From a virus: 64,000 nt of DNA. Each line of letters opens with the position of its first letter. Position 1 is the stretch's first letter. The stretch lies in the IMG/VR virus record IMGVR_UViG_3300042301_003932, one strand, 5' to 3'. The notes under the pieces were generated by a model. The model made no database searches. It had not been told where the DNA came from and saw only the letters and a program-made list of their open reading frames with translations. This document shows, in pieces, positions 30,247 through 57,698 of the stretch. Made by a program: the position numbers and the translations under genes.

Positions 30247-33200
30247 TTATACATCGTCAAAAGACGCTCCTGTTGGTGTAATTACAAATTCAATATCAAT
30301 GTATTCTAACGCCCTTGTAGGTTTCAAGAAAATTTTACCTGTTAACGTATTAGAATCTAAATCTTCAGGAGTGTTTGAAACGGTAACTCTAAAGTCAATC
30401 AAACCTCTATCTCTTCTTATTGAATCTAAAATTGGGTTGACTGAGTCTAGGAACTGTTGTCTTACTTTATCATCGTTTTGTTCAAACAATAATCTAACGG
30501 CTACAGCTGAAATCAATTTACGTGCTTGTAATAACAATCTCCTTACGTTGATTCTATCAAGTGCAGATTCTCTAACTTGTAATGTTTTATTACCCCAAAT
30601 TACTGTACCAACGTCTGAGAATGTTGCGATTGGGTTAACTCTACCTTTATAAAGAGTGTCTCTATCTTCTTGAGTTAATTTTTTACGTGCTCTAATCGCG
30701 TTAACTAAACCTCTTGTGTAACCTGCAGATGCAAACCAAGGGAATGCAATGTTATCAGTTAACGCCAAGTTTTTAGTAACCTCAGCTGTTGGTGGGATAT
30801 AAATCTGTGTATTATTTACCGTGTCTCTCGTTAATACCCATGGATAGTATGTTGCAGTGTAGTTAGAATCTATACCTGTGTTTTCTAGTCTATCAACAAT
30901 CTCTTGTGGATAAACTAATCCCTCTTCAATATCTTGATAAGATGGTAATAATAAGTTAAAGTCAGGTGTTGTACAAATATAGATTGAGTCTGCTCTATCT
31001 GTTTCAACCATATCAATCGCATCTTCAACTAAATTTGAGTTGTAGTAATAATCAATACCCGGTGTTACAAATATGTTAATATTAACAGATTCAGGATTTG
31101 CAAAAGTTGCTTGACCCCATTTGTATGCGTAGTAGTCAGTATTTGCCCAAGTCTCTTGGTTAGGTCCTGAAATTTGTTTGAATGCTCCCCATCCTGATGC
31201 GGTTGGGAAAGTTACTGAAGATGCTGCTCCGTATTTAAATCCTGATTGACCTAATGCGAATGTATCACCATTTGTTCTATATTCTCTATAAATGTCCCAT
31301 CCATCAAAACCACCATAAGCCAATACTGTAAATTTACGAGTATTCAATCTAAAATATGGATTATCTGAATCTTCAGGTTCACTATTAAATGAACCGGCAC
31401 CCACTTCAAACGCTTGTGTGTATGCTGAGGTTGCTGGATTGTATATTGTAACTACCGTCGCTCCACTATCCATATGGAAACCTTTAGTAATATAACCCCA
31501 ATCAATACCTTCAGTATCAGTCGCTAAGTTAGCAGGAATTTGTTTACCTTTGTATTCAAAGAAATCGTAATCAATTCCAGTGATATTTGAAATACCTAAG
31601 TAAGCCTTTCTTGGGTTTTCTCCATTTGAGATAACTGGGTTATCACCACCCGATGAAGATCCAAAAGGTGGGTTGTAAATAACTTCACCAGCTTGTAAAT
31701 ATTTTGTTTTATAAATAACAAATGGTGGTGTTGATTGTGCATATTCTCTAGAAATATAACCTTCAAAACCACAAGCGACTGCGTCTGTCGGTGCCTCCTC
31801 ACTCATATCTAACATTACATATTTAGACCTCACTTCATACTCACCGTTAGATGTACCAATTTTATTTGCTACGTAGTTGTTTTGACTAGGATCCATTGAA
31901 CAATTAGTAAAACTTTCAACTACTCTTACATTTTGATCATTATCATAGAAATCTCTAATGAACACATCAAAAGTTCTATTTGAGAAAGAAATGTTTCCAA
32001 TAGACATTTTAACTAATCTATTTGCCGCGTTACCATCAGAAATAAGTTTGAATTTAAATAATTTATAAACTTTATTACCTCTTAATTCTGAAACAATATA
32101 TGGAGTTTCAGGTGTTTGATATTGTTCTAAATAGAACGCTATTGAATCGCTATAGTCTTGAATATTAGAATCGTCGGTAACACCAGGTAGCGCAATTAAT
32201 GAATTGTAGATACCTCTAATTTTTCCGTTTCTATAACCATTTAATAATAAACTTGAATAAACCTCTTCAATAAATAAAGGCACTTCGTTTCTATCTTTAC
32301 CAAAATTACTTCTACCGAATACTTTGGAAATATATTGTGAATCTGTTGTTGAAAGCGAGGTTTCAAAGGTGAACGTTTCAGCATCACTAGTAATACCAGA
32401 AATTACAAAAGTTTCAAATGGATTAAGAGCAACTCCTGAGTATGCTCCTGTTGTGATAATATTAACTCCTGTTGTTGCACTAACCTCAAAATCAGGACCG
32501 TGTTGTGTACTAGAGTAATTTGTAACACCTCTAGATCTCAATGTTGCAACAACTAAATCATCGTATTCACTATAAGGAGTACCTGAATAAACAGTACCGT
32601 AAATTGCAACAGACCCTGAGTATCCTGAAGTCACTGTTGAGATTGAATTTAATGATGCCCCAAAACCATAACCATTATAACTACCGATACTTGATGATTT
32701 AGAATAATCAAATAATGCGTAGTACCAAGGATCATTTAAATAAGAACTTAAATTGTTATTTGCAAAAATAACATCATCAACACCAAACGTTTCAGTATAT
32801 GCGGTTGTGTTGTACGGTGCTCCTGTAACCGCATTAAATGTTGCATCATTAACAGACCCCCAAAAATAAGAGGTTTTACCAGACAATGGTGATGCGATTG
32901 AAAATAAACCAACTTGTGCTGAAATATAATTTTGGAAATCTAAATAAAGACTTGAACTACCCCCATTTGCTGTTGTATATTGATTATAAAAATCGGCAGA
33001 TATTAATGATGGTAGTGAAGGTAATATTGTAATATTTGTACTAGCCCCTGTTGTTCCTGTAAAATATACATAACCTACCGGTGTTGGTGATGAACCTGAT
33101 ACACCAATAGTTGAACTATCAATATTACCGATAGTAACAATTGACCAAGACGGTCCAGCGTCATAACCTGAAAGACCTAATATTCTTGTAACAAATAATT

Positions 33201-33468
33201 GATTTGATTGTTGTAAATATGATTTTGCAATATAAGAAGTTTCATATTTAGGGATTTGTGTGTTTACGAATTTCTCTGGACTTGTTCCACCGAAATAAAC
33301 TTGATACTCGTCAAAGTTAGTGATAAATATAGGTTCAAATGCTGGTCCCTGTAAGGTCTCACCAACTAAACCTAATGTTGTTACACCAACACTTTGAGCG
33401 ACGAAAGTTAAGTCTCTTTCTGAGGTATAAACACCTGGAGAAACGAATACTTTTGTACTAGATGCCAT
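30247..33468 (-). CDS. Tail sheath protein (T4 gp18-like) with large outer insertions
   Basis: FVSPGVYTSERD, YTATYYPW, PWFASAGYTRG, DTLYKGRVNPI, WGNKTLQ, LDRINVRRLL and KPTRALEYIDIEF. Confidence 0.95.
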   Translation of the reverse strand: MASSTKVFVSPGVYTSERDLTFVAQSVGVTTLGLVGETLQGPAFEPIFITNFDEYQVYFGGTSPEKFVNTQIPKYETSYIAKSYLQQSNQLFVTRILGLSGYDAGPSWSIVTIGNIDSSTIGVSGSSPTPVGYVYFTGTTGASTNITILPSLPSLISADFYNQYTTANGGSSSLYLDFQNYISAQVGLFSIASPLSGKTSYFWGSVNDATFNAVTGAPYNTTAYTETFGVDDVIFANNNLSSYLNDPWYYALFDYSKSSSIGSYNGYGFGASLNSISTVTSGYSGSVAIYGTVYSGTPYSEYDDLVVATLRSRGVTNYSSTQHGPDFEVSATTGVNIITTGAYSGVALNPFETFVISGITSDAETFTFETSLSTTDSQYISKVFGRSNFGKDRNEVPLFIEEVYSSLLLNGYRNGKIRGIYNSLIALPGVTDDSNIQDYSDSIAFYLEQYQTPETPYIVSELRGNKVYKLFKFKLISDGNAANRLVKMSIGNISFSNRTFDVFIRDFYDNDQNVRVVESFTNCSMDPSQNNYVANKIGTSNGEYEVRSKYVMLDMSEEAPTDAVACGFEGYISREYAQSTPPFVIYKTKYLQAGEVIYNPPFGSSSGGDNPVISNGENPRKAYLGISNITGIDYDFFEYKGKQIPANLATDTEGIDWGYITKGFHMDSGATVVTIYNPATSAYTQAFEVGAGSFNSEPEDSDNPYFRLNTRKFTVLAYGGFDGWDIYREYRTNGDTFALGQSGFKYGAASSVTFPTASGWGAFKQISGPNQETWANTDYYAYKWGQATFANPESVNINIFVTPGIDYYYNSNLVEDAIDMVETDRADSIYICTTPDFNLLLPSYQDIEEGLVYPQEIVDRLENTGIDSNYTATYYPWVLTRDTVNNTQIYIPPTAEVTKNLALTDNIAFPWFASAGYTRGLVNAIRARKKLTQEDRDTLYKGRVNPIATFSDVGTVIWGNKTLQVRESALDRINVRRLLLQARKLISAVAVRLLFEQNDDKVRQQFLDSVNPILDSIRRDRGLIDFRVTVSNTPEDLDSNTLTGKIFLKPTRALEYIDIEFVITPTGASFDDV

Positions 33469-33604
33469 TTTTTTAGTTAATTAAAGATTTATTTTTATAT
33501 ATAAATACATTAATTCTAAGCAAAAAACAGACCTAAAAAATAATAAATAGATAGTAGTATGAAAAAATTCTACCTTTTTTCTACCTATTAAAATATTTAT
33601 TAAT

Positions 33605-33754
33605 ATGAAAAAAATTAAAAATATAAAGATTTCTGAAGAAACACATTTATTATTAAAAAAATACTGTGAAGAAAATGGTTTAAAACTTTATAAATTTTTA
33701 GAAAATTTAATAATTAAAACTTGTACTAAAGAAAAAGACATTTATGGTGAATAA
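33605..33754 (+). CDS. Small ribbon-helix-helix-like DNA-binding protein (49 aa)
   Basis: Below the ORF-track cutoff. MKKIKNIKISEETHLLLKKYCEENGLKLYKFLENLIIKTCTKEKDIYGE has a beta-alpha-G-alpha pattern; TATTTAT lies 4 nt upstream. Confidence 0.75.
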   Translation: MKKIKNIKISEETHLLLKKYCEENGLKLYKFLENLIIKTCTKEKDIYGE

Positions 33755-34984
33755 CTAAACTAAAACGGCATTAGTCTTTATAATTGAATTCTGAGTTACG
33801 TCATCTTTATAAACTATAATTTTTAAAGTATCCCCATTGTTAATTTGTATTAATGGTACGTTGTCACCTAAATAATTATTATTAATAAAAACAGAATAAC
33901 TTGAAGCACAAGATACTCCCTCATTAAATGTACCTCCAGTCGTATTACTAAAAGATGGTAAGGTTGAGGATTTAACGCAAATATTACCTGAGTCACCAAT
34001 ATTTGTAGATATTGTGGTTGTTGCTCCACTACAGTTAATATAGGTCAAGGTATTATTTGTTATTGACGAATAAGTGGTTTCATAACAATTGATTAAATTA
34101 GTTGTTTCGTTAATTGTTATGTCTGCGGTATACCTAAAAACTTCATTCAATTGAGTAACTCCCGAAACAAATAATAAATCTAAGTCAAAACTGTCGGGTC
34201 TTGCTGGTTCTATTTCAACTTTACGACCTCTTTTTTTAGTATCAAACTCAAATAGTGTAACTTGTCTTGTAATTGCTGGTGACACTTGAAATTCTTCTTC
34301 ATCTATTAACATACCCTTTAATGTTATTTTATAACTTTGGATATAATACTTTCTCTTTTCTATTTCTTTTACCGATTCATCTGTCGGGTCTTCCAAAGTC
34401 ATTTGCATATAATGACCTTTTATTTGTGTGTATGCTTGTTTAGAGGTAAATTTTTGCATCATGATTTTGTTAAATTCATTAACTTCTCTCATTCTATTAC
34501 AAAAAATCTTAACTGTGTAGGTAATATCAACAGGAACAGGTTGAGGTATTTTATATACGTCAGCCCCTTTTCTTTGCCCATCCCAAGTAGGTACGGTATA
34601 ATAAAAAAATCGTAACCTTTCGGGTATATTGTAAGCTCCATTATTAATTTTTCCATATTTAACTTCAGGTTGTCTTACCGTAATAATAAATGGTAAGGAT
34701 ACATTTTTATCTAAATCTTGAAATTTCCATGTCTCTGTAAATTGTGTCCAACTTTGTGTTGTTATGATTTTATCAACAGTAGGGACCGTTTTACCGTCAA
34801 CAACTAATTTCAAATCATTTTTAACAAAATCTAACACACCTCTATCCATGTCGGCATGTAATACACCTTTTGGTAGAAAAGTTCCACCATCCGTAATATC
34901 ATCCAACATTTGTTGTCTTCTTTCTTTTCCAACTTTGGTTGGTATTAAAGGAAGGTGTTTTTTGTTTTGTTTTGGTAATGCCAT
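33755..34984 (-). CDS. Tail terminator / sheath stabiliser (T4 gp15-like) with a C-terminal extension
   Basis: LPFIITVR, PVPVDITYTVKIF...EVNEFN, Y.ITLKG; lies between neck and sheath genes. Confidence 0.72.
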   Translation of the reverse strand: MALPKQNKKHLPLIPTKVGKERRQQMLDDITDGGTFLPKGVLHADMDRGVLDFVKNDLKLVVDGKTVPTVDKIITTQSWTQFTETWKFQDLDKNVSLPFIITVRQPEVKYGKINNGAYNIPERLRFFYYTVPTWDGQRKGADVYKIPQPVPVDITYTVKIFCNRMREVNEFNKIMMQKFTSKQAYTQIKGHYMQMTLEDPTDESVKEIEKRKYYIQSYKITLKGMLIDEEEFQVSPAITRQVTLFEFDTKKRGRKVEIEPARPDSFDLDLLFVSGVTQLNEVFRYTADITINETTNLINCYETTYSSITNNTLTYINCSGATTTISTNIGDSGNICVKSSTLPSFSNTTGGTFNEGVSCASSYSVFINNNYLGDNVPLIQINNGDTLKIIVYKDDVTQNSIIKTNAVLV

Positions 34985-34986
34985 TT

Positions 34987-35502
34987 TTATAAACCGTTAA
35001 ATTCGTCGTTAGTTACAGGTGATGCGATTATTGTTCTATAATATTTTTTATAACCACCATAAGTATGTTTCATATCTGAAGTAACTCTACCATCATTTAC
35101 CACTGAATAATATCTAACCCTATCTTCTGTTTCATAATACGCTAAATAATCCCCCAAAGATATCTCAATAGCTAATTGATCTAAATGTGATTGATAAACA
35201 CTAAATGTCATGTTACCTGGTTCAAGTTGTGAAAGTTTTGATGACCCATAATCTGAGTTAGTTGGTGCATCAATTTTTACTAAACCTTTAACTTCTATTG
35301 GTGCTAAAAACTGTATTCCATCGCTTAACGCCTCACCATAAACATCATCATTATTTGTCCTTTGTCTGTCAACACGATATAAAACAACGGTAAAATTCAT
35401 ATCACCCATCTGCCATTCCATGCCCATTTCAATCTCTAAATTAAAATCTTCTTCAGAAAAAAACTTATTTAATCTTGTAATTGGAACTTTATTTTGTGAC
35501 AT
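34987..35502 (-). CDS. Neck / head-closure protein (T4 gp14-like)
   Basis: VLYRVD...DDVYGEA...F..PIE...GDY; start revised to MSQNK, just after the TATTTAT motif. Confidence 0.7.
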   Translation of the reverse strand: MSQNKVPITRLNKFFSEEDFNLEIEMGMEWQMGDMNFTVVLYRVDRQRTNNDDVYGEALSDGIQFLAPIEVKGLVKIDAPTNSDYGSSKLSQLEPGNMTFSVYQSHLDQLAIEISLGDYLAYYETEDRVRYYSVVNDGRVTSDMKHTYGGYKKYYRTIIASPVTNDEFNGL

Positions 35503-35524
35503 ATTAATAAATATCATTAAGCAC

Positions 35525-35550
35525 AAAAAACCCCACAATAGTAGGGCTTT
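35525..35550 (-). terminator. Intrinsic terminator
   Basis: AAAGCCCTAC-TATT-GTGGGGTTTTTT. Confidence 0.65.
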
Positions 35551-35575
35551 ATGTTATTTTAAAAATTTTAAATTA

Positions 35576-35941
35576 CTATAATCCAATAGCGTTTGATTCA
35601 ACTCCGTCTATAAATTCAGTTAAAGATTCTGAAAGTTCTTCTATTGATGCAACTTTTGTCGGTAAAAGTTCAAGAATATCATCTGAGTCACATATATCTT
35701 TTAAATCTTCTAATACGTCTTCTAACATTTCAATTAAGTCATTACATGTTTCTTGAGCCTTTTCTATTTTTTCATTATCATCTATATCCTCATCATCCAT
35801 ATCCTCATCATCCATATCCTCATCATCCATATCCTCATCATCCATATCCTCATCATCCATATCTTTTTCTTCTTGTTCACGTATCGCTCTTCTAACAAGT
35901 CTAGAAAGTTCTCTTTCGTTAAGTCTTATTATTTTTTTCAT
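35576..35941 (-). CDS. Highly acidic small protein with a MKKIIRLNE leader and DMDDE repeats
   Basis: Stand-alone unit with its own TATTTAT motif and terminator. Confidence 0.75.
   Translation of the reverse strand: MKKIIRLNERELSRLVRRAIREQEEKDMDDEDMDDEDMDDEDMDDEDMDDEDIDDNEKIEKAQETCNDLIEMLEDVLEDLKDICDSDDILELLPTKVASIEELSESLTEFIDGVESNAIGL
35777..35863 (-). repeat. 15-bp tandem repeat, about 6 copies (encodes DMDDE)
   Basis: (atcatccatatcctc)n is directly visible. Confidence 0.95.
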
Positions 35942-36039
35942 AACACAATTTTTTTTTTAATTAATTTATTAAAATAAATATCACACACAAATAAAAAGTT
36001 GTTTTTTTTATATTATTTACTATTATTATTTATAATATA

Positions 36040-37803: not shown

Positions 37804-37815
37804 TATTTATATTAC

Positions 37816-38901: not shown

Positions 38902-38928
38902 TAAGATATTTATATAAAAATATATCTT

Positions 38929-40047: not shown

Positions 40048-40053
40048 TTTTTT

Positions 40054-40386
40054 ATGGCAGTTTTTAGATCCGTATCATCACAAAGAATAATCAATGGTAA
40101 TTTAATTGAAACTTCAGATTCTGCAATAGTCTCAAACCCATCATACGAAGTAAATGGGGAGTACGTAATAATTACAAAAGGGATTCAAGATTGTGTTGTT
40201 ATATTAAATGAAAACACAAGTGACCATGTAGTTATAAAGTCATTGACAAATACGTTAGTAAAATCAAGTAAATTAATAGACGATGAATTTAACGAGATTG
40301 AATTAGGTAAAGGTTCTTGTGTTGAATTTAAATACGTTAATGGTGGTTGGTACATACTCTCTTCTGACGGACTAAAGGGGTCTTAG
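40054..40386 (+). CDS. Hypothetical beta-rich protein
   Basis: 110-aa ORF co-oriented with the neck gene; ends GGWYILSSDG. Confidence 0.7.
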   Translation: MAVFRSVSSQRIINGNLIETSDSAIVSNPSYEVNGEYVIITKGIQDCVVILNENTSDHVVIKSLTNTLVKSSKLIDDEFNEIELGKGSCVEFKYVNGGWYILSSDGLKGS

Positions 40387-43283: not shown

Positions 43284-43344
43284 ATTTGTTTTTTTTAAGT
43301 TTGGTGTATTAGCTGTTACACATGGGTAACATTTACCTTCGTCT

Positions 43345-44869: not shown

Positions 44870-44915
44870 TTAATGTTTTTTTATAGTTTTTATTTTGTTT
44901 TATTTAATAAATATT

Positions 44916-45545: not shown

Positions 45546-45783
45546 TTTTTTTTAAGTTGTGTTTTTCTAAAAATTCTCTTGGGCTCATTGCCTCAATTAT
45601 TGTTAATTCCGCAGAAGCCATAAGTTGTTTTGCTTTTTCTTCGGTAACTGCCATAACACATAATTTATGTGTTGCCGGTAATTCTCCTGTTGGTGATAAA
45701 TCCATTTTTAATATATTATCATTTTTCATTTTTTCTCTTGCTTGTGAAACTTTACTTTCTTCACATAATATACATATTCTCAT
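45523..45783 (-). CDS. Hypothetical protein (LSPTGELPATH)
   Basis: 86-aa ORF overlapping both neighbours. Confidence 0.65.
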   Translation of the reverse strand: MRICILCEESKVSQAREKMKNDNILKMDLSPTGELPATHKLCVMAVTEEKAKQLMASAELTIIEAMSPREFLEKHNLKKIGKYGNI

Positions 45784-46595: not shown

Positions 46596-46608
46596 AATTT
46601 CTTTTTTT

Positions 46609-49600
46609 TTAATCTGTTATATTTACAATATTTAATACTGATGATGAATCATAATACGATAATTTAGCACTTCCACCTTGTATGTTAAATATGTTTTTAT
46701 CCATACTCGTATCATAAACATAAGTGGATGAACTAAAATCATTACTATTTATATTATCTGTGATATTATTTTTTTGAAAAGTTCCGTTAATCCTATTACC
46801 ATAAAAGGTATCTCTAATTACGTTATTTGTAAAATCATTACTGATTGAGTTACCTCCAACATTATTTGTTGTGTCATTTCCAAAGTAATTTCCAATTTTG
46901 TTATTTGTAAAGGTACCATCTATTACGTTTTCAGTTCCTGATCCACCATTACCAAAATAATCACCAATATCGTTATTTTCAAATGTATTATTTATTGTAT
47001 TAAACGCCATGTAATTACCGATCTTATTAGAAACAAAATCAGAACTAATTGTGTTACCCACACATACGTTTGATACATTGTTATCAACAAAGTTTGGACT
47101 TAAAAGGTTAAATATAAATTCATTACCTATTTTGTTATTGGTTGTATTTGTATCTGTTACATTAAAAAAGAAATTATCACCGATAACGTTTCCTGAAAAA
47201 CCGGTATTAATTAAGTTACCACCATCAACACCCAAATAATTACCAAAATTGTTTCCAATAACATTTGATTTAAAGTCATCAAAAATTTGATTTGTTAACC
47301 CTGGAGATCCGGTACCGTCATTTCCAAAATTATCAGCAATTGTGTTATTTTGAAAGTTTAATCCAATGGTGTTATTAATAAATAAGTTACCGATATTATT
47401 ACTGTAAAAATCATCATCTATCGTATTATCATAAAAATTATTTTTAATATTATTACTATAAAAATTTTGACCTATGATATTATTATAAACGCTGTCACCA
47501 AAAGAATTATTTTCAAAAGTGTCACCAATAATATTTTGATAAAAACCACCCTTCCAATTATTTCTATAAACACCACCTAAAAAGTCGTTACCAAAAGTGT
47601 AAACACCAATGTCATTGTTATAGGTGTCTCCAGAAAATTCATTTCCACCTACATAGGAATTAATATTATTTTCTTGAAAGTATCCACGAATATAATTTCC
47701 TTTAAATTCATTAAAAATAGTATTATCCGCAAATTCACTACCGTTATTATTTTGTGTGTAGATTGAGTTCCATTCTGTTCCTTCAGGTGAAACATTTTCA
47801 TCCCACGAGTTTTCCAAAACATCATTATAAATTGCTCCACCATTATTTCTTTTTATTTCAAGACGACCAGGAATAATAATATCAACCACATTTTCATAAT
47901 TTGTTTTTGTAAAATAAACTGTTGGTTCAGACGTTGGATAAACTTTTGTTCTTTCATATGAAAATCCTCCACCATTACCACCTTGCGTCCATTGTGTAAA
48001 TTTAACTCTATAATATTCATCATAAGATGTTAATTCAGTTAATTCTGAATTTGAGATCCATTCAGTAGGTGTAGTTCCTGTTGCTATAAAAATACATCCG
48101 TTTGTATTTATAACACCACTTATTACATATGCAACATTACTAAAATCGTCACTACCTTGATAATTTGTAATTTCATATGTTTCATCAATTACTAAATCAC
48201 CGCTAGTTATTGTTGTACCTGAATTACGTAAAAATCTCATTATAAGTTCCTTGCCCAAAATAACATTACCAATGTTATATCCTTCATTGCCGTATAATGA
48301 ATTAAAAAATGTGTCGTAAGTTCTTCCCGTTAAATTTTCAATATTTGTATTATCCCAATTAAAATATTGAGTATCTCCTAACGTGTTTCTTTCAAAGGTA
48401 TTACCAATTTGGTTGCTTTCAAAAAAATAAGAAATACCATTGTCACGAAAATAGTTACCAATTTGGTTATTTTGGAAATAATCACCAATTAATTCATTAC
48501 TTTCAAAATCATTACCTATATGGTTACCATAAAAATTATACCCTATGTTTGGATTATTATAAAAATTGTTACCTATAACATTTTCATAAAAATTACCATT
48601 AAGTGTGTTACTTTCAAAATCATTACCAATTTGATTATTTGAAAAATTTTGTCTAATAGTGTTATTATTAAAATTATTTCCAATTTTATTTTCGTAAAAT
48701 TCAAAATTACTTGTATTACCAGAGTCTCCGATTGTAATATTATTAAAGTTATTTAATATTTCATTACTATAAAAATTAGAATAAATAGTATTAGTATTAA
48801 AATTATTACCAAGTGAATTATCATTAAAATCTCGGTATACCTTATTATTATAAAAATAAGAACCTACTTTGTTATCGTTAAAACTACCATCAATTCTATT
48901 ATTACTAAATTCTACAGTTATGTGATTATTTTGAAAACTGGTATTAATTAAATTTCCGTTGAAAAGGTCACCAATGTCATTATTAAAAAACTCGTTTCCA
49001 GCAAATGTTAAAAAGTTTGCCTGAAAGTAGTTTCCAATTCTATTTTGATCAAAGTCTTGCCCATCGTTGTCCCCTAACATATTATATTGAAAATAATTAC
49101 CAATTTGGTTATCTGCCATATCACAAATGATAATATTATTTCTAAAGTAATTACCAATAGTGTTTCTATCAAAATCGTTTGTGATTATGTTACGATAAAA
49201 ATTATTACCAATAGATAATGCATTCATATCATCATCAAATGTATTATCATATGACTCATCACCTATAGTAATATTTAAATAAGACCCATCAAGAAATACA
49301 TTATTAGATAACAAGAAGGGATTTTCCTGCCAATTATAAAGATTGGCGTAATTTCCAATTTTTACATTAAACACATCTGGAGCTTCAAAAGTTAAATATT
49401 CGGTGTAAGCGGTATTACTAATTATGTTTGTTTTATGAAAACTTCTATAATCATTAAATTGTATCCCTCTAGAATATGGTGTATTATAATTTGATTGAAT
49501 GGTATTACCAGTAACAGTCATTTCGGTTGCCCCACTAATTGTAAGGATTTCGTAGTATCTAAAACATCCTGTTGGGTTACTAAACGACCCTTCATAAACT

Positions 49601-50385
49601 CCCAATACATCACCAACACTAAAGTTATTTGAAAAGTCTGTATCTGATCCAGTAACAAAACCACTACCATCAATACTCAGAGTACCTGAATAGTAGTTTT
49701 CTGAATAATAAAAATCATATCTTTTAAATAAAACGGATCTAAAGTCATAGTCAGTTCTATTTCCTCTTTCATCAATTCTTTCAGTAATTCTACCCTTTGC
49801 AGGATTACCTGTTCTTTCAGTTACGGTAAAAGATATATCGTAAGAAATCTCATCTAAAGGGTATTCTAATGAATATGCTTTAGGTGATAGAGAGTTAACA
49901 CCCGTGGCTAATACAAGTATTGGTTCTGTTGCACCTGTTTTATAGTTGTTACCTACTATTGCATTACCATTTTGGTCAAAATCAGGTTGGTCATAACAAG
50001 TTTGAAAATCATTGATTAGGTAATACAATCCTGAATTTAATGTTTCACCTGTAAATAAATCATATAATTCACTATATGTTACAGACGTATAAATTTCAGT
50101 TATAATTCCTGTTAAATTTGACCCATCACCAAACAATGTAGTAGCACTAAATGTATTGGCAGATAAACCATTTGTGAAATTTGTTGTGCCGGTTACTGTA
50201 CCTCCTGTAAAAGATCCTCCACCAAAATCTTCAAGAGAACCATCTGGATTCTTTTTTTCAAATGACCCACTATTTAAATCAACCCCAACGTAATAAGTGT
50301 TAGTGGTTCCACTTAAATTATTGAAATCTTCTCCTGTAACGTAAATTGTGGTTTTACCATTATTTTGTTGTATTATTCTTCCCAT
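46609..50385 (-). CDS. Tail fibre/spike with Asn-rich beta-helix repeats (N-x-IG-N-x-F-x-x-N)
   Basis: Dozens of NxIGNxF repeats; N-terminal YSEL...LNSGLYYLINDFQT and ITERIDERGNRTDYDFR modules. Confidence 0.75.
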   Translation of the reverse strand: MGRIIQQNNGKTTIYVTGEDFNNLSGTTNTYYVGVDLNSGSFEKKNPDGSLEDFGGGSFTGGTVTGTTNFTNGLSANTFSATTLFGDGSNLTGIITEIYTSVTYSELYDLFTGETLNSGLYYLINDFQTCYDQPDFDQNGNAIVGNNYKTGATEPILVLATGVNSLSPKAYSLEYPLDEISYDISFTVTERTGNPAKGRITERIDERGNRTDYDFRSVLFKRYDFYYSENYYSGTLSIDGSGFVTGSDTDFSNNFSVGDVLGVYEGSFSNPTGCFRYYEILTISGATEMTVTGNTIQSNYNTPYSRGIQFNDYRSFHKTNIISNTAYTEYLTFEAPDVFNVKIGNYANLYNWQENPFLLSNNVFLDGSYLNITIGDESYDNTFDDDMNALSIGNNFYRNIITNDFDRNTIGNYFRNNIIICDMADNQIGNYFQYNMLGDNDGQDFDQNRIGNYFQANFLTFAGNEFFNNDIGDLFNGNLINTSFQNNHITVEFSNNRIDGSFNDNKVGSYFYNNKVYRDFNDNSLGNNFNTNTIYSNFYSNEILNNFNNITIGDSGNTSNFEFYENKIGNNFNNNTIRQNFSNNQIGNDFESNTLNGNFYENVIGNNFYNNPNIGYNFYGNHIGNDFESNELIGDYFQNNQIGNYFRDNGISYFFESNQIGNTFERNTLGDTQYFNWDNTNIENLTGRTYDTFFNSLYGNEGYNIGNVILGKELIMRFLRNSGTTITSGDLVIDETYEITNYQGSDDFSNVAYVISGVINTNGCIFIATGTTPTEWISNSELTELTSYDEYYRVKFTQWTQGGNGGGFSYERTKVYPTSEPTVYFTKTNYENVVDIIIPGRLEIKRNNGGAIYNDVLENSWDENVSPEGTEWNSIYTQNNNGSEFADNTIFNEFKGNYIRGYFQENNINSYVGGNEFSGDTYNNDIGVYTFGNDFLGGVYRNNWKGGFYQNIIGDTFENNSFGDSVYNNIIGQNFYSNNIKNNFYDNTIDDDFYSNNIGNLFINNTIGLNFQNNTIADNFGNDGTGSPGLTNQIFDDFKSNVIGNNFGNYLGVDGGNLINTGFSGNVIGDNFFFNVTDTNTTNNKIGNEFIFNLLSPNFVDNNVSNVCVGNTISSDFVSNKIGNYMAFNTINNTFENNDIGDYFGNGGSGTENVIDGTFTNNKIGNYFGNDTTNNVGGNSISNDFTNNVIRDTFYGNRINGTFQKNNITDNINSNDFSSSTYVYDTSMDKNIFNIQGGSAKLSYYDSSSVLNIVNITD

Positions 50386-50441
50386 TGTTTTTTATTTTAT
50401 AAATATCTTTACTTTTCAAAAACAGATAGAGAATCTAAAAA

Positions 50442-51260
50442 TTAGAAGTAATTAAATTTTTCAAAGAACCATAAATAATTTTGCTTTATTATTTCACAAT
50501 TTTGTTCACCTAAAATTTCTAAATAATCTTTACGAGGTTCTTTAAGTTTTGATTCAATTTTGTGATCACCAAATATACCATGTATAACATCATTTTCTTC
50601 TGTTAATTGTTCTATATTTTCAAAGTCATGTTGGTAGTAAGGTAGATCCAAATACTTGTATATTTTTTTAATTTCCATTTCTGGATTTTTACAAAAATCT
50701 TCATATCTTAAAAATAAAATGTGTTGATCTAAATTTTGTTGTATCAAATCTTTTAACCATTCTAATGAAGGTCCGACAGGTGGAGAAACAGAAAAATGGA
50801 CCATTCTTGAATCTGTTGTCATATTTTTTAATTCTGCACCATTAACAATTAACGGATCTATATGTGGATTTTTTCTATAGTTTTTTTCCATTGACGCAAA
50901 TATTGCCCTCAAGTCTCTAACCATAATTATTACTTTTGGGTTTTCTTCAAAAAATTCTAAAAAAGAAAAGTGACCTGACCATGCCCTACTTTTATCTAAA
51001 ACATATGGTCTATCTGTGATTTCGTTGAAAAATCCCCATAACCCACCTTTACAAAAACCTTTAAATCCTTTTTTCATTAATTCCGGATCTTGTGCTCTAA
51101 ATGCGTCTCCTGTTGAGTAAAGTGTTCTTGCTTGTAATAAAAACTCAACAACACCTGATGTTGGTGTTGAATATATTTCAGGATTTTGCATCATAATATT
51201 TTGCAATAAAGTTGAACCTGCTCTTGGTAGTGATGCGTTAAAAAATATGTTTTTTATCAT
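50442..51260 (-). CDS. PAPS-dependent sulfotransferase family protein
   Basis: 5'-PSB loop SLPRAGSTLL, DKSR.W, 3'-PB motif MVRDLRAIFAS and LRYED. Confidence 0.88.
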   Translation of the reverse strand: MIKNIFFNASLPRAGSTLLQNIMMQNPEIYSTPTSGVVEFLLQARTLYSTGDAFRAQDPELMKKGFKGFCKGGLWGFFNEITDRPYVLDKSRAWSGHFSFLEFFEENPKVIIMVRDLRAIFASMEKNYRKNPHIDPLIVNGAELKNMTTDSRMVHFSVSPPVGPSLEWLKDLIQQNLDQHILFLRYEDFCKNPEMEIKKIYKYLDLPYYQHDFENIEQLTEENDVIHGIFGDHKIESKLKEPRKDYLEILGEQNCEIIKQNYLWFFEKFNYF

Positions 51261-52141
51261 TTTGTTAAAGAATTAATAATTTTATCAAAATCAAATAATA
51301 CATCACCTTCAAATATTGGACATTCGTGTAATGACCCGTGAAAGTTATAATCAAATAAATATGAATCAGGTAACGGTATAGTTTTAGAAATATTTGCAAC
51401 TATATTGTCGTGTAAATCATAACCAAATATTTTAGGATTTGTTGCAACCCACAATACTGTTGATGGTAATTTAAGTGCAGCTGCTCCGTGTTGTAAACTT
51501 GAATCAATTAACAATCTTTTTTCAGACATCGTTAAAAGATAAAGTAACTCCATATTTGACATTGGTTGACTTTGTACTTCAACATCATCAATAAAGTTAA
51601 GTTCATTTCTACATATTTGGATTATGTGGTAGTCTTTTTTAAACTGTTCCACAATTGATTTAGAAAGTAACTGTGGCATGTCTCTTGTCCAAGAATAAGG
51701 AAATGGTTGATCTAATAATGGCCCACCATTTGTTTGTATTAAAAATATCGGTTTTTCTCTTGACCATTTTTTTTGAAAAACCATTTGTTCTCTTAAATTG
51801 AATTTTACTTCAGGCATTTCACCTAACCAATTTAAGTTATATAAATTACACCAATTTTGAATTAAAGGTAATTTACCGTGAATATGTTCAGTTGTAAAAT
51901 ATGGTTCGTGTTTGAATACTAAAGAATCTTTATCTTTAACAAAATCATCATAGAAGTATGATGTTGTATTATTTCTATAAACTCTCCAAACACAAGGTAG
52001 GTTTATAAATATTTCGGGATAGGAACAAACAATTATTAATTTCCTATCTTTATGGTTATTTTTAATTGTTTTTGCAACTGCGGTTGCTGCGATGTGTTTT
52101 CCTAAACCACCTTCTATATGAAATATTGCATATTTTTCCAT
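51257..52141 (-). CDS. GT-B glycosyltransferase (heptosyltransferase/GT9-like)
   Basis: GGLGKHIAATAV, LIVCSYPE, IQTNGG and IDSSLQHGAAALKLPSTVLW. Confidence 0.78.
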   Translation of the reverse strand: MEKYAIFHIEGGLGKHIAATAVAKTIKNNHKDRKLIIVCSYPEIFINLPCVWRVYRNNTTSYFYDDFVKDKDSLVFKHEPYFTTEHIHGKLPLIQNWCNLYNLNWLGEMPEVKFNLREQMVFQKKWSREKPIFLIQTNGGPLLDQPFPYSWTRDMPQLLSKSIVEQFKKDYHIIQICRNELNFIDDVEVQSQPMSNMELLYLLTMSEKRLLIDSSLQHGAAALKLPSTVLWVATNPKIFGYDLHDNIVANISKTIPLPDSYLFDYNFHGSLHECPIFEGDVLFDFDKIINSLTK

Positions 52142-52191
52142 GACTTTTTAATCAAATATTAATAAAGTCAAAAGAAAAATAAATAAAACTA

Positions 52192-52431
52192 TTAGTTCAA
52201 ATAATTTTTACCTGAAATAATTGTGTTATCTATTTCAGATCTTTGTTCTGTTGTTAGTGCGTTTGAAAAAAACTCTTTACCTAACATAATTTCTAAATGT
52301 TCAACATTTCTTTTTACCAAATCTTTATTTTCATCATCGGTAGGTTTAGTGATTGTTTCGTTAATTAAATTAACTGAGTCAAAAGCGGCACTAATTGATT
52401 GTTGTGTGTTTACTATAAACTCTTCTTCCAT
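52192..52431 (-). CDS. Small helical protein after the adhesin gene (possible fibre chaperone)
   Basis: AAFDSVNLI...RNVEHLEIM; position directly after the fibre gene. Confidence 0.6.
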   Translation of the reverse strand: MEEEFIVNTQQSISAAFDSVNLINETITKPTDDENKDLVKRNVEHLEIMLGKEFFSNALTTEQRSEIDNTIISGKNYLN

Positions 52432-52452
52432 TTTTTATATTTTTTTTAATTA

Positions 52453-54729
52453 TTATACCAATAATATTTTATGGTTAACACCATTTAATACTACAGATAA
52501 TGTTCTTGTTGAAGTGCAAGATTCTATATTTATTGGACCAACTTGATAAGTTGAGGAACCTAAAACGAATTGATTGTTTGCGGTTGCGGTTGCACAAGCA
52601 CCTAAAATAACTGAATTTGAAAAATTTCCAGTGTTTGTTCGAGACCCTAATGCCGTGTTAGTGTTACCTGTTATGTTTCCAATTAAAGAAAGAAAACCAA
52701 CACCAACATTATTAGAACCTATTGTGTTATAAGGTGAAGAAGCACCACCAAGTGATACGTTATAATTTCCTATTGTGTTAACATTTAAAGAACAAGAACC
52801 TAAAGCAACATTTGTACATCCACTAGTGTTACAAAACAACGATTGTCTACCAATGGCCACATTATCACCACCTACCGTATTACATACCATAGAACCGAAA
52901 CCTAGTGAAGTATTATAACTACCGGTGGTGTTTGAACGCATAGATTCAAAGCCTACGGATGTATTAGAATTAGCGGTAGTATTTTGTCTTAAAGTATCGT
53001 TCCCTATTGCGATATTTCGAGCGCCTTCAGTATTGTTTATTAAAGTACAAGTACCTAAACCAACGTTTTGAAAACCTGTTGTATTATAACGTAAAGAATT
53101 ACAACCAATACTAATATTACCACCACCACTACTATTATTACGTAAGGCATTATAACCTATAGCAATATTTACTGAACCATCGGTATTACAAAATAGTGAT
53201 TGTCTACCAATACCGATATTATTAAATCCCGTAGTGTTACTACGCAAAGAATTACAACCTAAAGCAATGTTAGAACATCCTGTTGTATTACAACGTAAAG
53301 AATACCTACCTAATGCAATATTATTATCCCCCGTAGTATTTGAACATAAACTAATAAGCCCCAAAGCAATGTTATGAGATCCGGTTGTGTTATTACGTAA
53401 AGAATACCTACCCATACTAATATTACAACTTCCGTTTGTATTAAATAACATACTACAATCACCAAAAGAAATATTTCTTGTACCTGTAGAGTTTGTCTGA
53501 AGAGACTTTAATCCAATCGCAATATTAAAACTTCCATTTGTGTTACATCGCAACGTACTATAACCAAGTCCAATATTTGAGTCTCCACCCATACCGTTAT
53601 TACATAAAGAATATCTACCTAATGCAATATTATTGCTCGCAACAGTATTTGAAAATAGACTTTGGTTACCAATTGCTATGTTGTTAAACCCCATAGTGTT
53701 TGACCTCAAACTATATCTTCCTAATGCCACATTATACCCTCCCGTTGTATTACAACGTAACCCATACTGACCTAATGCAATATTATGACAACCTGTGGTG
53801 TTATTATACAAAGAAAACCGACCTAAACTAATATTATTACTACCTGTAGTGTTATTATATAGGGAACTATTTCCAATCGCAATATTTTCTGTGCCTGAAA
53901 TATTTTTACTTAATGCGCCAGCATTTATCGCCGTATTACTACTACCATTAATGTTATTTGCTAAAGTACGATAACCAATTGCTACGTTTACACCTCCTAT
54001 AGTATTATTACGTAAAGAACAAAATCCTAACCCTACGTTAAAACATCCTGTTGTGTTAGATAAGAGCGAATACCTACCCAACGATACGTTGTCGCGACCA
54101 GTTGTGTTACTGTAAAGTGAACAACAACCCAACGATATGTTGTTATTTCCTGTTGTATTTGCTCGTAGTGAATTTTGACCCAAAGATATGTTGTTACTTC
54201 CTGTTGTGTTTGAACATAAACTGAATCGACCCAAAGCAATATTACAACCTCCTGTTGTGTTGGTGTTTAACACCGAGCAACCTAACGCAAGATTATAACG
54301 ACCCGTAGTATTAGCGTTTAAAACCGAATTACCTAATGCAATATTATTGGATCCGGCAGTATTACTATATAATACCCCACTACCAATACCAATATTACGA
54401 CATCCACTTGTATTAGAAAATAAAGAAAAACAACCAATCGCAACATTTAACGTCCCCCCCGTATTACTACGTAAGGATTGATTGCCTAATGCAATATTAT
54501 GGCATCCTGTTGTATTTGAATTTAACGCAAACCTACCCAAAGCAACATTATCCGTTCCTGTTGTTGTATTATTTAATGAAAATCCACTCTGTAATATATT
54601 ATTACTTGCATTTGCGGTGAATCCAGTAAATGATCCCCCACCACTAACTCCCGTTAAATTAGAACCATCACCATAGAGTGTTGTTCCACTTATTGTTGTT
54701 GCACTTATTATGTCTGTATTAAATCCCAT
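52453..54729 (-). CDS. YadA-head-like beta-roll repeat fibre/adhesin, Cys-rich
   Basis: Dozens of ~17-aa repeats (SLxxNTTGxxNIALG); C-terminal ATANNQFVLG neck-like motif. Confidence 0.82.
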   Translation of the reverse strand: MGFNTDIISATTISGTTLYGDGSNLTGVSGGGSFTGFTANASNNILQSGFSLNNTTTGTDNVALGRFALNSNTTGCHNIALGNQSLRSNTGGTLNVAIGCFSLFSNTSGCRNIGIGSGVLYSNTAGSNNIALGNSVLNANTTGRYNLALGCSVLNTNTTGGCNIALGRFSLCSNTTGSNNISLGQNSLRANTTGNNNISLGCCSLYSNTTGRDNVSLGRYSLLSNTTGCFNVGLGFCSLRNNTIGGVNVAIGYRTLANNINGSSNTAINAGALSKNISGTENIAIGNSSLYNNTTGSNNISLGRFSLYNNTTGCHNIALGQYGLRCNTTGGYNVALGRYSLRSNTMGFNNIAIGNQSLFSNTVASNNIALGRYSLCNNGMGGDSNIGLGYSTLRCNTNGSFNIAIGLKSLQTNSTGTRNISFGDCSMLFNTNGSCNISMGRYSLRNNTTGSHNIALGLISLCSNTTGDNNIALGRYSLRCNTTGCSNIALGCNSLRSNTTGFNNIGIGRQSLFCNTDGSVNIAIGYNALRNNSSGGGNISIGCNSLRYNTTGFQNVGLGTCTLINNTEGARNIAIGNDTLRQNTTANSNTSVGFESMRSNTTGSYNTSLGFGSMVCNTVGGDNVAIGRQSLFCNTSGCTNVALGSCSLNVNTIGNYNVSLGGASSPYNTIGSNNVGVGFLSLIGNITGNTNTALGSRTNTGNFSNSVILGACATATANNQFVLGSSTYQVGPINIESCTSTRTLSVVLNGVNHKILLV

Positions 54730-54735
54730 ATCTTT

Positions 54736-55746
54736 TTAATTAAATGTTCCTGAAATTATCCAATTACCGATCACCCTTTTTTCAACTATGAAGTTTGCTC
54801 CTGATATTGACATTCTCCATGAACCATTGGTTGATGAATCACCAAAATAAAGGTATCCTGTTGAATCTATATATGTGTTTGATGCTTGTAAAGTTGTTGC
54901 TGATAGTGTATTTGCCGTTAATCCATTTGTAAAAGAAGTAGAGCCGGTAACAGTACCCCCACTTAATGGAAGATATTTACCTGTAACGTTATCAGGTAAA
55001 TTTTGATATGTTGTTGCCGAAAGTATTCCATTTATAGTTAACCCACTAAATCCGTCAATATATGTATTTAAACTATTATTTGTATTATCAGTTAAAGTAA
55101 TTGTATTAGTTGAACTATCGTATGTTGATGCGGTTAAAAACGTATTTGAATCTCCAGTTAAAGAACTAATATTAACAGTATATGCCGATTGAGATACATT
55201 TGTGTTAAAATAAATAATTCCGTCATTATATGTTGCTCCTGTTGTGAAAACATCTGTTGTTCCTGTATAAAATCCATTAACGGTGACATCGGCCCCGTTA
55301 CTTGTTGAAAGTGTTAGTGTTCCTCCAGAGTATGTCCCTGAAGTAATTAAATCACCAAATGTTGGTAAATCAACCAAAACCGTTTGTCCTGAACCACTAA
55401 TTGTTCCTCCACTTAAAGTATATACATCACCATTTAAAACAATTAATTGAGAATTTTCATTTAATAATAAAGTGCCAAAAACATACAAATCACCATAAAT
55501 AAAACTTTGTGAATAAGAATCAATTTCTACTGTTGTTCCTGAAGGTATGTACCATCTATTATCAACGTTGATATCTACACTTGATATGGTACCTCCAGTT
55601 GGATTTATTAAACTTAGTGTGCTTGAAGAAAATGTTAACCCTGAAACCCCAATAGATTGTAGATAATAAAGATTATTATCCATATCTAAATTGGTTAATT
55701 TTGACCCCTTAGCGTCAGGCCCATATTGTCTTGTAACTAAACTCAT
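54736..55746 (-). CDS. Ser/Thr/Gly-rich fibre or decoration protein
   Basis: KGSKLTNLDMDNN N-terminus, YLPLSGGTVTG fibre motif, C-terminal GSWR. Confidence 0.7.
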   Translation of the reverse strand: MSLVTRQYGPDAKGSKLTNLDMDNNLYYLQSIGVSGLTFSSSTLSLINPTGGTISSVDINVDNRWYIPSGTTVEIDSYSQSFIYGDLYVFGTLLLNENSQLIVLNGDVYTLSGGTISGSGQTVLVDLPTFGDLITSGTYSGGTLTLSTSNGADVTVNGFYTGTTDVFTTGATYNDGIIYFNTNVSQSAYTVNISSLTGDSNTFLTASTYDSSTNTITLTDNTNNSLNTYIDGFSGLTINGILSATTYQNLPDNVTGKYLPLSGGTVTGSTSFTNGLTANTLSATTLQASNTYIDSTGYLYFGDSSTNGSWRMSISGANFIVEKRVIGNWIISGTFN

Positions 55747-55769
55747 TTTTTATTTAATAAATATAATGT

Positions 55770-57698
55770 TTATTCAAAATAACCACATTCGTCATAATAA
55801 CCATCAATGTATTCATTGGTACAAAGACAATTAGGGCACCAAAAATTAAGTAAATTAAATTTATCTTTTAATACTCTAAAGTTATGTTGTATTTGTGGTG
55901 AACTTAATGGTTCTACATACATTCTAAATTGAGAAATCCCCCCCATAAAAGTTCCACCAAAATTTTGTTCTAATAATATATTTGTTGAAATTCCCGAAAA
56001 GGTGGTTGCACTTAATATGTTATTTGGGAATAGTTCGGGATCTTGTATGTAAGGGCCGTTTGGTAATGAGCAACCTGAAAAAATTAAGTGATCATGTAAT
56101 CCTTGAGTCCCCCCACCAAACGAAATATTAAAAGGAACACCAACTTGTTTTTCTTTTTCTGTATTTAATTCTCTTGGTATAATCTCCTCAAAGTCTTCAA
56201 TAACTAAAAACAAATAACCATTAACATATAGTTTTAATGTTCCTAATCTATAATTTAATTCATCAAACCATTTTTTATCAAATCTAACAATGTGTATTTT
56301 TCTTTCAGGTGTTGATCCTGGATGTGTTTCAGGTGGTGAAATTAAATTAACTGACTTACCATCTATTGATGATTGTGTTGTAACAACTCTTAAATCGTTT
56401 AACCCACCTAAATTTAATAAATCACACTCCTCAATGGTTGTGTACCGTTCAAAAACGGCACTTATCATAACCCACTTTTCTTCGGTATTATCACCACATT
56501 CTAACCCACATAAATCATATATCGGTTGTGATATTACTTCGGTTAATGTATACCCTGTTTGGAATGTTACACCTGTTGTTTCGCAACTTCCTGTGGTTAC
56601 ACAGTCTCCTGTAATTTTTAAATATTTTACAGCAATACTTGGATTTTCAGGGCAACCATCAAATCTTAAAGATATCGCACTTGACAAGACATCAAATTTT
56701 GGATCGGTTTCTGGTAGCGGTACGATTTCTGTACTTGCACACCCACAATTACATCCAAGATTGTGTACCGTAGTAAATCCGTTGTTAGGGTAAACGTGAA
56801 TACAATTTGCGTTTGTAACTCCCGTATTTGAACAAGCACAAGACTCAATACATGTTAACCCACTTGTGATTCTAGTGTAACCTGAGTCAGATGATGGAGA
56901 TCCGTTGGCTTCGTGATAATATTTATTCTCCGCTCGTGTACCAAAATAAAAGAACGTACCAGCATTTGATGGGTATATATCATTTAAATACTGTTCGGTG
57001 TTAGGGTTTAAAGAATACTCTTCAAATGTTCTTGGTTTTAACATCATCTCAACAGACCAACCCTTATTTACCCTTTCAGGAAAAACCTCATAATCGTACC
57101 CATTTAATTTATAAAATCCTTGATAAAACCCACCGTATAACTCTTGATAGTAACCAACGGTACTCGCACTTTTTGATACAATATTATATATACTATCTTT
57201 TGGTCTTCCTGAAAATTTTACGTTTGGTAACTCAACCACGCTTCTTACAGGGTGCATTTTAAACCTACTATCTCTATAATGAGGGTGAAACTTGTACGTA
57301 TCATCTATACCTTTAATATAATATAAAGTTTCTCCTGACATTTTTGTAAATAACCCGTTATCGGTAGCAACAAGACCAACATCACAAATACCTGTATATG
57401 CGGTATAACAACTGTAGTCTAAATTTTTTGGGTTATAAAAGTTTTTTGAAACAAATGTGTTTCCAAAAATATAGTCACCGTATTTTAACGTCGGTTGTAT
57501 GGTTGTGCCTGTATTATTTAAATCAATATAAATTGGTAATCGGTTTCCATCATTAATACCAATTACATCAGTAGAAAAAACAACTTCTTCATCATAACTT
57601 CCTTCATCTGACGCTAAAGTTAAGTCAAAATACTGACCATAATTCAGTTTTGTGGTGTATTTTGGGTAATAATAAGAATTAATGTTTTGACTTGGCAT
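55770..57698 (-). CDS. Virion protein with a LamG/concanavalin-like fold and Cys-rich inserts
   Basis: WSVEMMLKP...FFYFG...WVMISAVF...LKLYVNG...FMGGISQFRMYVEPLSSPQIQHNF. Confidence 0.6.
   Translation of the reverse strand: MPSQNINSYYYPKYTTKLNYGQYFDLTLASDEGSYDEEVVFSTDVIGINDGNRLPIYIDLNNTGTTIQPTLKYGDYIFGNTFVSKNFYNPKNLDYSCYTAYTGICDVGLVATDNGLFTKMSGETLYYIKGIDDTYKFHPHYRDSRFKMHPVRSVVELPNVKFSGRPKDSIYNIVSKSASTVGYYQELYGGFYQGFYKLNGYDYEVFPERVNKGWSVEMMLKPRTFEEYSLNPNTEQYLNDIYPSNAGTFFYFGTRAENKYYHEANGSPSSDSGYTRITSGLTCIESCACSNTGVTNANCIHVYPNNGFTTVHNLGCNCGCASTEIVPLPETDPKFDVLSSAISLRFDGCPENPSIAVKYLKITGDCVTTGSCETTGVTFQTGYTLTEVISQPIYDLCGLECGDNTEEKWVMISAVFERYTTIEECDLLNLGGLNDLRVVTTQSSIDGKSVNLISPPETHPGSTPERKIHIVRFDKKWFDELNYRLGTLKLYVNGYLFLVIEDFEEIIPRELNTEKEKQVGVPFNISFGGGTQGLHDHLIFSGCSLPNGPYIQDPELFPNNILSATTFSGISTNILLEQNFGGTFMGGISQFRMYVEPLSSPQIQHNFRVLKDKFNLLNFWCPNCLCTNEYIDGYYDECGYFE

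Follow-up and report, generated by a model that had tools for sequence, protein, structure and literature searches.

Introduction

The transferases AAH and TibC are soluble cytoplasmic enzymes that modify many serines in the repeated turns of beta-solenoid adhesins. In TibA, the mapped sites consist of a Ser followed by small residues (NSGGAV, TSAAVS) and are heptosylated by TibC/AAH (PMC4358343). Here we analyse a tetrapeptide of similar make-up, [ST]-[GA]-x-T, which recurs in the outer virion proteins encoded by a 64,000-nucleotide stretch of viral DNA (IMG/VR record IMGVR_UViG_3300042301_003932; "the window" refers to this whole stretch) and which a previous sequence-only reading had proposed as the sequon of a possibly sulfated O-glycan coat on the virion. 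The enrichment of the tetrapeptide is confirmed: it is real, order-specific, confined to outer virion proteins and goes beyond composition, reaching 5-10 times the chance frequency in outer tail and fibre proteins of the phage and of its whole clade. We tentatively favour reading the tetrapeptide as a structural element under selection in the beta-rich outer domains of the clade's virion proteins, a preference that falls a little short of an even chance.

The locus shares several traits with the AIDA-I/TibA adhesins and their BAHT enzymes (AAH, TibC): the Ser-small-residue turn sites of these adhesins resemble the [ST]-[GA]-x part of the motif, and, as in the TibC/TibA gene pair, in which the transferase gene lies beside the adhesin gene, a candidate transferase gene (p294) lies near the gene of a 758-residue virion protein. 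Unlike TibA, where Ser alone is modified and not Thr, the motif contains Thr; unlike the BAHT systems, p294 is a weak GT9-like lead (GT, glycosyltransferase) paired, in the syntenic loci compared, with a 758-residue family that is not enriched in the motif, and no iron-finger BAHT was detected.

The known acceptors of the GT60 family are Thr/Pro-rich mucin-like stretches, and the shafts of phage fibres carry short repeated strand/turn motifs, for instance of the G-[GD]-T-M-T-G type. The LPLSGGTVTG module described below resembles this type; unlike these shaft motifs, the tetrapeptide extends to non-fibre folds, and the T4 fibres are not enriched in it. The polypeptide GlcNAc-transferase of Trypanosoma cruzi (GT60) adds GlcNAc to Thr of mucins (PMC3769586). 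Relatives of the phage encode a full-length PF11397 protein like these UDP-GlcNAc:polypeptide alpha-GlcNAc transferases, and a preference for Thr would match the last residue of the motif; in contrast to the T. cruzi setting, the gene lies outside the window and Pro-Thr (PT)-rich linkers accompany it in three genomes. In mycobacteriophages, virion O-glycosylation by phage GTs occurs at the C-termini of capsid and tail-tube proteins (Freeman et al. 2023, as summarised in PMC12619734). The phage analysed here is likewise a tailed phage with GT genes of its own; the two cases differ in that capsid and tube are not enriched here, the candidate sites are internal and dispersed, and the host probably belongs to another phylum, the Bacteroidota. 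Our literature search turned up no sequence rule for tailed-phage virion glycosylation, the mycobacteriophages being the one citable example.

Results

Enrichment of the tetrapeptide in outer virion proteins

The proteins on which the enrichment was assessed are the following, the 758-residue protein being a Ser/Thr/Gly-rich control:

54736..55746, minus strand: fibre-like protein of 336 residues; 16 motif copies; beta-solenoid-like N-terminal part; module LSGGTVTGSTSFTNGLTANTLSATT common to other fibres
46609..50385, minus strand: fibre of 1258 residues; 15 motif copies; N-terminal module in common with the 336-residue protein
55770..57698, minus strand: conserved core virion protein of 642 residues (p642); ConA/LamG-like jelly-roll core; 10 motif copies
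30247..33468, minus strand: tail sheath of 1073 residues; Phage_sheath_1 and 1C at residues 793-1064; 7 motif copies, in the insertion region 137-681
33755..34984, minus strand: protein of 409 residues upstream of the sheath; 3 motif copies at residues 274-352; putative tail-terminator extension, so named in the sequence-only reading
52453..54729, minus strand: YadA-like beta-roll virion protein of 758 residues; PHROGs virion structural / tail spike, E 1e-93 to 1e-107

All five counts that had been made by eye were reproduced (16, 15, 10, 7 and 3 in the order listed, those of the 409-residue protein being SGVT, SGAT and TGGT), as were the restriction of the sheath copies to residues 137-681, with 0 in the Pfam-matched C-terminal core, and the near absence of the motif from enzymes (0 in PolB and DnaB; 1 each in the ribonucleotide reductase (RNR), UvsX and SNF2). 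Expected counts were taken from 2000 composition-preserving shuffles per protein, and by this test the enrichment is real and composition is not its explanation: 16 versus 2.17 expected in the 336-residue protein (z 9.8), 15 versus 2.27 in the 1258-residue fibre (z 8.6) and 10 versus 0.88 in p642 (z 9.8), with mild enrichment in the sheath (7 versus 2.6, p 0.012) and the 409-residue protein (3 versus 0.56, p 0.018). The enrichment claimed for surface proteins therefore holds for these five and fails for the 758-residue protein (6 versus 4.0). There was no enrichment in 12 pooled baseplate and tube proteins (11 versus 8.1), and neither enrichment nor avoidance in 23 pooled non-virion proteins of the window (4 versus 4.1).

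Chance or amino-acid composition could be invoked, the three main proteins being rich in Ser, Thr and Gly, and we consider this explanation negligible. When residues were shuffled only within segments of 10, 20 or 40 residues, z was still 7-9.6 in the three main proteins, so local Ser/Thr/Gly clustering is not the cause; over global and local shuffles together z was 7-10. Permutations of the same composition were flat (T.[GA][ST], [ST].[GA]T, [GA][ST].T and [ST][GA]..T), [ST][GA].S, with Ser at position 4, was not enriched in the window proteins, and a second Ser/Thr/Gly-rich control, a 1330-residue head-region protein of the relative G004, was as flat as the 758-residue protein (9 versus 10.9). 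Among all 8000 a-b-x-c patterns, with the five proteins pooled, SG.T ranked first (20 versus 2.9, P 4e-11), TG.T fourth and SA.T sixth; the motif is therefore independent of the choice of pattern made in the sequence-only reading. Shuffles, permutations and controls together refute composition and local clustering as the cause.

The codons of the motif are diverse (AGT/TCA/TCT, GGA/GGT/GGG, ACA/ACT/ACC), so the signal lies at the protein level and a repeat at the DNA level was rejected as its source. As a separate observation, Gly at position 2 is encoded by GGA 19 times and by GGT 9 times, with 178 GGT and 109 GGA in the same proteins overall.

The observation that the motif spans unrelated folds was borne out: the ConA-like protein, the sheath insertion and the fibres carry it without detectable mutual homology. 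Homology among the motif proteins is limited to matches of the 1258-residue fibre with a 283-residue protein and, through its N-terminus, with the 336-residue protein (residues 22-84 versus 220-286, 43% identity, E 3e-8); the remaining matches look compositional, and shared ancestry of all motif-bearing proteins is unsupported. Searches of Pfam and PHROGs gave no assignment for the enriched proteins except the C-terminal core of the sheath, the Pfam fibre-repeat families did not match the fibres, and PDB sequence searches (four proteins, one profile) returned no match. The 336-residue protein has 275 homologues, some with collagen or DUF1566 C-termini, and p642 has 1091. The 1258-residue fibre also has an internal repeat of its own (GN.F 18 versus 1.9 expected, IG.Y 10 versus 0.7, FY.N 12 versus 1.3), separate from the tetrapeptide and probably a beta-helix rung.

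Anatomy of the motif and predicted structure

Flanks and the x position were analysed in 51 contexts from the window and 414 from relatives. Hydrophobic residues occupy positions -1 and +4 in 57-65% of the copies, against 32-34% in the background. The x position had been described as free, as in a sequon, which the contexts do not bear out: x is preferentially G, T, N, L or S, Pro is absent (0/414), charged residues are rare (Lys 1/414), and x is conserved in the fibre modules of the relatives (SGGT, TANT, SATT). In the sheath (58 homologues) and p642 (41) the sites are conserved in position while x varies; at such sites position 1 alternates between S and T, position 2 between G and A, and position 4 between T and S; p642 sites are retained in up to 41 of the 41 sequences.

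In the fibres, the copies form modules with a 5-7-residue period, YLPL-SGGT-V-TGGT-VFQ-SGL-TANT-I-SATT-YQNLP and a second one, TGNTSLQ.L-TATT-I-SATT, the dominant spacings between motifs being 5, 7, 9, 14 and 19-21 residues. The modules recur between divergent domains of many fibre genes (YLPLSGGTV, TANTISATTYQNLP), and the region from the 336-residue protein gene to PolB is a hypervariable fibre cassette amid conserved synteny. Conserved boxes have been proposed as recombination points in the tail-fibre genes of T-even phages, and the occurrence of the same modules between divergent domains of a hypervariable region would suit modules kept mainly as conserved junctions for fibre-gene recombination. 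We consider this very unlikely: the diverse codons point to selection on the protein and not to a DNA repeat, and the single-copy conserved sites in the sheath and p642 would be left unexplained.

In the AlphaFold2 (AF2) model of the 336-residue protein, strands start inside 8 of the 16 motifs, in 5 cases exactly at the Thr, so that 8 of 23 strands begin in a motif against about 3.3 expected; the other 8 motifs have no predicted strand and lie mostly in stretches with a low predicted local distance difference test score (pLDDT). The confident part of this model shows a weak resemblance to beta-solenoid/beta-helix proteins including TibA (Z 4-5.4, all below the noise level). The p642 model reached a predicted template modelling score (pTM) of 0.65, with weak, sub-threshold matches to lectin folds. 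The invariant cysteines of p642 (C287, C289, C299, C318, C366, C372, C397 and others; residues 256-310 and 364-397) lie in conserved inserts, which may be disulfide or metal knots.

From these features we infer a turn and strand-start role that would explain the motif without any modification. In its fuller form, hydrophobic-[ST]-[GA]-x-T-hydrophobic, the Ser/Thr and the small Gly/Ala would form a tight turn or cap, the beta-branched Thr would start the next strand and the flanking hydrophobic residues would fix the register. The fibres would string the element into modules with the 5-7-residue period, reshuffled among the variable genes between the 336-residue protein and polymerase genes, and isolated copies would occupy conserved points where a loop passes into a strand, both in the sheath insertion and in the inserts of the LamG-like protein. 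Such a role may be compatible with glycosylation of the same loops, the two readings not being exclusive.

Reach of the motif within and beyond the clade

The window has a GC content of 30-34% and comes from a large myovirus that is distantly T4-like; it carries virion genes (baseplate J, gp25, a T4-type baseplate protein, a gp19-like tube and the 1073-residue sheath) and genes of replication and metabolism (PolB, DnaB, UvsX-like RecA, gp32, RNR, SNF2, superoxide dismutase, dUTPase). Its closest GenBank entry is LR756508.1, an unannotated 484-kb "uncultured phage" with a sheath identity of 31%; close relatives number hundreds in IMG/VR, and a search with the sheath alone matched 471 stretches, the longest contig among them measuring 304 kb. 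The phage is an uncultured freshwater jumbo phage, one of a widespread clade. Translated searches (tblastn) of cultured phages gave no match to the 336-residue protein or the N-terminus of the 1258-residue fibre, and no genome with a fibre of the clade was found in GTDB.

Among 95 related loci with 835 open reading frames (ORFs), 46 ORFs have z>5, the extreme fibres being those of L015 (71 copies in 1732 residues) and L012 (44 copies in 973 residues). In G004 (281 kb) and G002 (304 kb), two relatives with near-complete genomes, about a dozen proteins are enriched: the post-baseplate fibre cluster, the p642 homologue and the sheath. Their other ORFs are at expectation (100 versus 105 expected over the G004 ORFs with z<3; 85 versus 78 in G002). 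The proposed term of a coat on the virion was too wide, the major capsid proteins of the two relatives being weakly or not enriched (2 versus 1.1 and 4 versus 0.9 expected). Sheath relatives carry 6-13 copies at conserved columns (58 distinct homologues aligned), 410-residue relatives of the 409-residue protein carry 4-5 against about 0.4 expected, and in remoter relatives, with GT homologues 50-65% identical, the p642 homologue still has 8-15 copies. A generic property of fibres was rejected, T4 fibres being flat.

Two fibres of G004 contain SprB repeats (PF13573, E 4e-11 and 9e-9; L188:5302-6915 and L187:15898-18816), which are known from the gliding adhesin of Bacteroidota. These repeats in a relative's fibres hint at a Bacteroidota host for the clade. 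They were rejected as the source of the tetrapeptide, since in G004 they read IGGT or GGT-x-PY, without the motif. A paper of 2025 describes an aquatic lineage of jumbo phages, the moraphages, whose genomes reach 307 kb, whose core genes include four GT orthogroups and whose hosts are predicted to be Bacteroidota (PMC12619734); if the present clade is that lineage, the paper likewise points to a Bacteroidota host.

Glycosylation and sulfation genes

The genes of the window that bear on glycosylation are as follows:

51257..52141, minus strand: GT9-like candidate transferase of 294 residues (p294); its end overlaps the sulfotransferase start by 4 bases
50442..51260, minus strand: sulfotransferase of 272 residues in the fibre module; Sulfotransfer_3 E 1e-14, Sulfotransfer_1 E 5e-14
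60370..61581, plus strand: glycosyltransferase of 403 residues (u403); PHROG 7162 glycosyltransferase, E 2e-44
62899..63999, plus strand: two-domain GT2_5 + GT4 glycosyltransferase (Pfam), of which the window holds the start only, its end cutting the gene

At least four GT domains and a sulfotransferase had been listed; the sulfotransferase and three GT domains (u403, GT2_5, GT4) were recovered, and the fourth, p294, is a lead only: PF01075 was matched at E 0.17, sequence searches of the PDB gave no match, and 9 of its 30 ESM Atlas neighbours are clusters with PF01075 in 45% of their members. u403 is present clade-wide (69-93% identical in relatives), in an operon divergent from the p642 gene. 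A search of the phage collection gave no homologue of the GT2_5 + GT4 protein. Its gene opens a glycan island of about 14 ORFs in L098, a relative with 90% identity, and is followed there by GT2, GT11, three FkbM methyltransferases, GT10-like, GT11-like, Gmd and Fcl; a Pfam scan of these 14 ORFs gave no flippase or initiating-phosphotransferase domain. This island and the GT60 gene described below were examined in relatives only.

Gene content was compared over the 11 syntenic loci L001-L011. There p294, the sulfotransferase and the 758-residue family are present or absent together, and the sulfotransferase occurs only in the window and in L005/L006; the suggested sulfation is therefore not general, as the sulfotransferase accompanies only the 758-residue family, which has no motif enrichment. 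In the window, the 758-residue protein gene lies a few hundred bases upstream of the p294 and sulfotransferase genes, and its product is enriched in N-x-[ST] (51 versus 30, z 4.8), above all in NT.G (29 versus 2.1).

These genes are the setting for the proposal that the motif is an acceptor, a "structural sequon", for phage-encoded, cytoplasmic and membrane-free O-glycosylation of tails and fibres, which we regard as unlikely. On this view the glycan would begin with a sugar placed by a soluble transferase on Thr 4 or on Ser/Thr 1, in exposed turn-strand joints of the folded proteins, and the island (GT2, GT4, GT11, GT10-like, FkbM, Gmd/Fcl) would extend it to a fucosylated, methylated glycan. 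The absence of flippase and initiating-phosphotransferase domains from the L098 island fits this proposal, as do the GT9-like gene and the sulfotransferase among the fibre genes of the window and the heptosylation of Ser in the beta-helix turns of TibA by TibC/AAH in the cytoplasm (PMC4358343). Speaking against it, the general O-glycosylation sequon of Bacteroidota, D-[ST]-[AILVMT], shows no enrichment (z -1.1 to +0.7 in six proteins).

A GT60-like enzyme and (PT)n linkers in relatives

The fibre cluster of G004 encodes a GT60-like PF11397 protein of 416 residues (E 3e-64; L213:11799-13049, corresponding to G004 179799-181049), followed by an HtrL_YibB-family protein. The gene is also present in G001 and G002 (L214-L219) and in at least 134 IMG/VR contigs, and a strongly motif-rich ORF lies within 8 kb of it in 35 of 80 loci, which favours the acceptor proposal. 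Homologues 44-48% identical occur in the cultured jumbo phages Xoo-sp13, XacN1, CM1 and RAS14. That of the Stenotrophomonas phage CM1 is 45% identical, and CM1 lacks enrichment in the tetrapeptide, which counts against the same proposal.

In three GT60-bearing genomes compared (G004, G002 and CM1) the enzyme goes together with PT linkers. In G004, PTPTPT runs are found in the 201-residue (179109-179714) and 541-residue (181896-183521) proteins flanking the GT60 gene, and in G002 (193147-195632) (PT)n linkers are found in ORFs of 164 and 645 residues just upstream of it; a further (PT)n linker site lies near the G004 gene at 175898-178816. In CM1 (L302-L317), PT/S-rich segments are found in 14 ORFs, and the a-b-x-c patterns that stand out most are PS.T, TP.P and PT.T. 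The (PT)n linkers are a more conventional candidate acceptor than the tetrapeptide. Because the GT60-like enzyme, the one transferase here from a family known to initiate on protein, co-occurs with PT linkers and not with the tetrapeptide, virion glycosylation becomes likelier and a tetrapeptide sequon less likely.

Alternatively, the GT60-like enzyme might glycosylate the virion on mucin-like linkers of the (PT)n type, with the tetrapeptide unrelated, a possibility that we hold to be somewhat doubtful. It is compatible with a structural role of the tetrapeptide, and its likelihood is not to be added to that of the latter. The PT runs beside the gene in G004 and G002 and the PT/S-rich ORFs of CM1 speak for it; against it, PT linkers are common flexible spacers that need no sugar, the comparison covers three GT60-bearing genomes, and there are no (PT)n linkers in the 44 proteins of the window. 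Co-variation gives no contrast within the clade, where motif and transferases are always both present; outside it, LR756508.1 has neither the motif nor PF11397, and CM1 has the PF11397 homologue without the motif.

Promoter-like words

Words resembling TATTTAT(A) precede the start codons of many virion genes by 17-40 nt (for example in 33469-33550, 50386-50441, 55747-55769 and 57699-57748) and are also found before the DUF3721 operon. They may be a late-promoter element, although the sequence is very AT-rich. They do not establish that late promoters tie the GT operon to the structural genes: the words are too AT-rich to be relied on, and the first GT gene lacks one.

Discussion

The observation is stronger than could be known at first reading, and the choice between structure and acceptor is not decidable from sequence. 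The structural reading is favoured because its support is direct: the hydrophobic flanks, the period, the modules, the strand starts, the conservation in position and the GT60/PT result. Several results weigh against it. Clade-specificity isn't expected of a generic turn motif, and the motif is flat in T4 gp34, gp36, gp37, gp12, sheath and Hoc, in 150 kb of the structural region of LR756508.1 (26 versus 28 expected) and in the entire 320-kb genome of CM1 (86 versus 107). Recurrence in mutually non-homologous proteins is typical of a sequence read by an enzyme, the inner baseplate proteins, though large and rich in beta structure, show no enrichment, and a turn that depends on glycine would not usually admit the exchange of G for A seen at position 2. 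The AF2 models are of modest quality (pLDDT 63 for the 336-residue protein and 59 for p642), and 8 of the 10 p642 motifs fall in the conserved Cys-rich inserts that AF2 models poorly, so that the strand-start pattern is one of the 336-residue model.

The acceptor proposal explains clade-specificity and unrelated folds, exactly where the structural reading is weak. An order-specific enrichment restricted to outer proteins is in its favour, as are the residue classes (S/T, G/A) kept by the substitutions at conserved sites and the preference for Thr over Ser at position 4 in the window, the T. cruzi enzyme also modifying Thr. On the other side, to our knowledge there is no O-glycosylation sequon of the form [ST][GA]xT. 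The dense tandem copies, the conserved x and the hydrophobic flanks look structural, the motif is not depleted in the cytoplasmic proteins of the phage, the major capsid protein is weakly or not enriched, and the GT60 gene adjoins (PT)n-linker proteins in G004 and G002, with PT-rich ORFs in CM1.

If the structural element is all that the tetrapeptide represents, it provides a compact signature by which the clade's outer tail and fibre proteins can be recognised in sequence that otherwise resists annotation, and it marks the modules by which the fibres of the clade are rebuilt. If it were an acceptor, it would be the first sequon known from the virion of a tailed phage and a predictive rule for sugar-coated phage surfaces in an abundant uncultured freshwater lineage, with a bearing on host recognition, particle stability and shielding from recognition by hosts or grazers. 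Two unrelated groups of jumbo phages, of which one is cultured (Xanthomonas and Stenotrophomonas phages), combine the GT60-like enzyme with (PT)n linkers, and this pairing may be a better experimental lead than the tetrapeptide.

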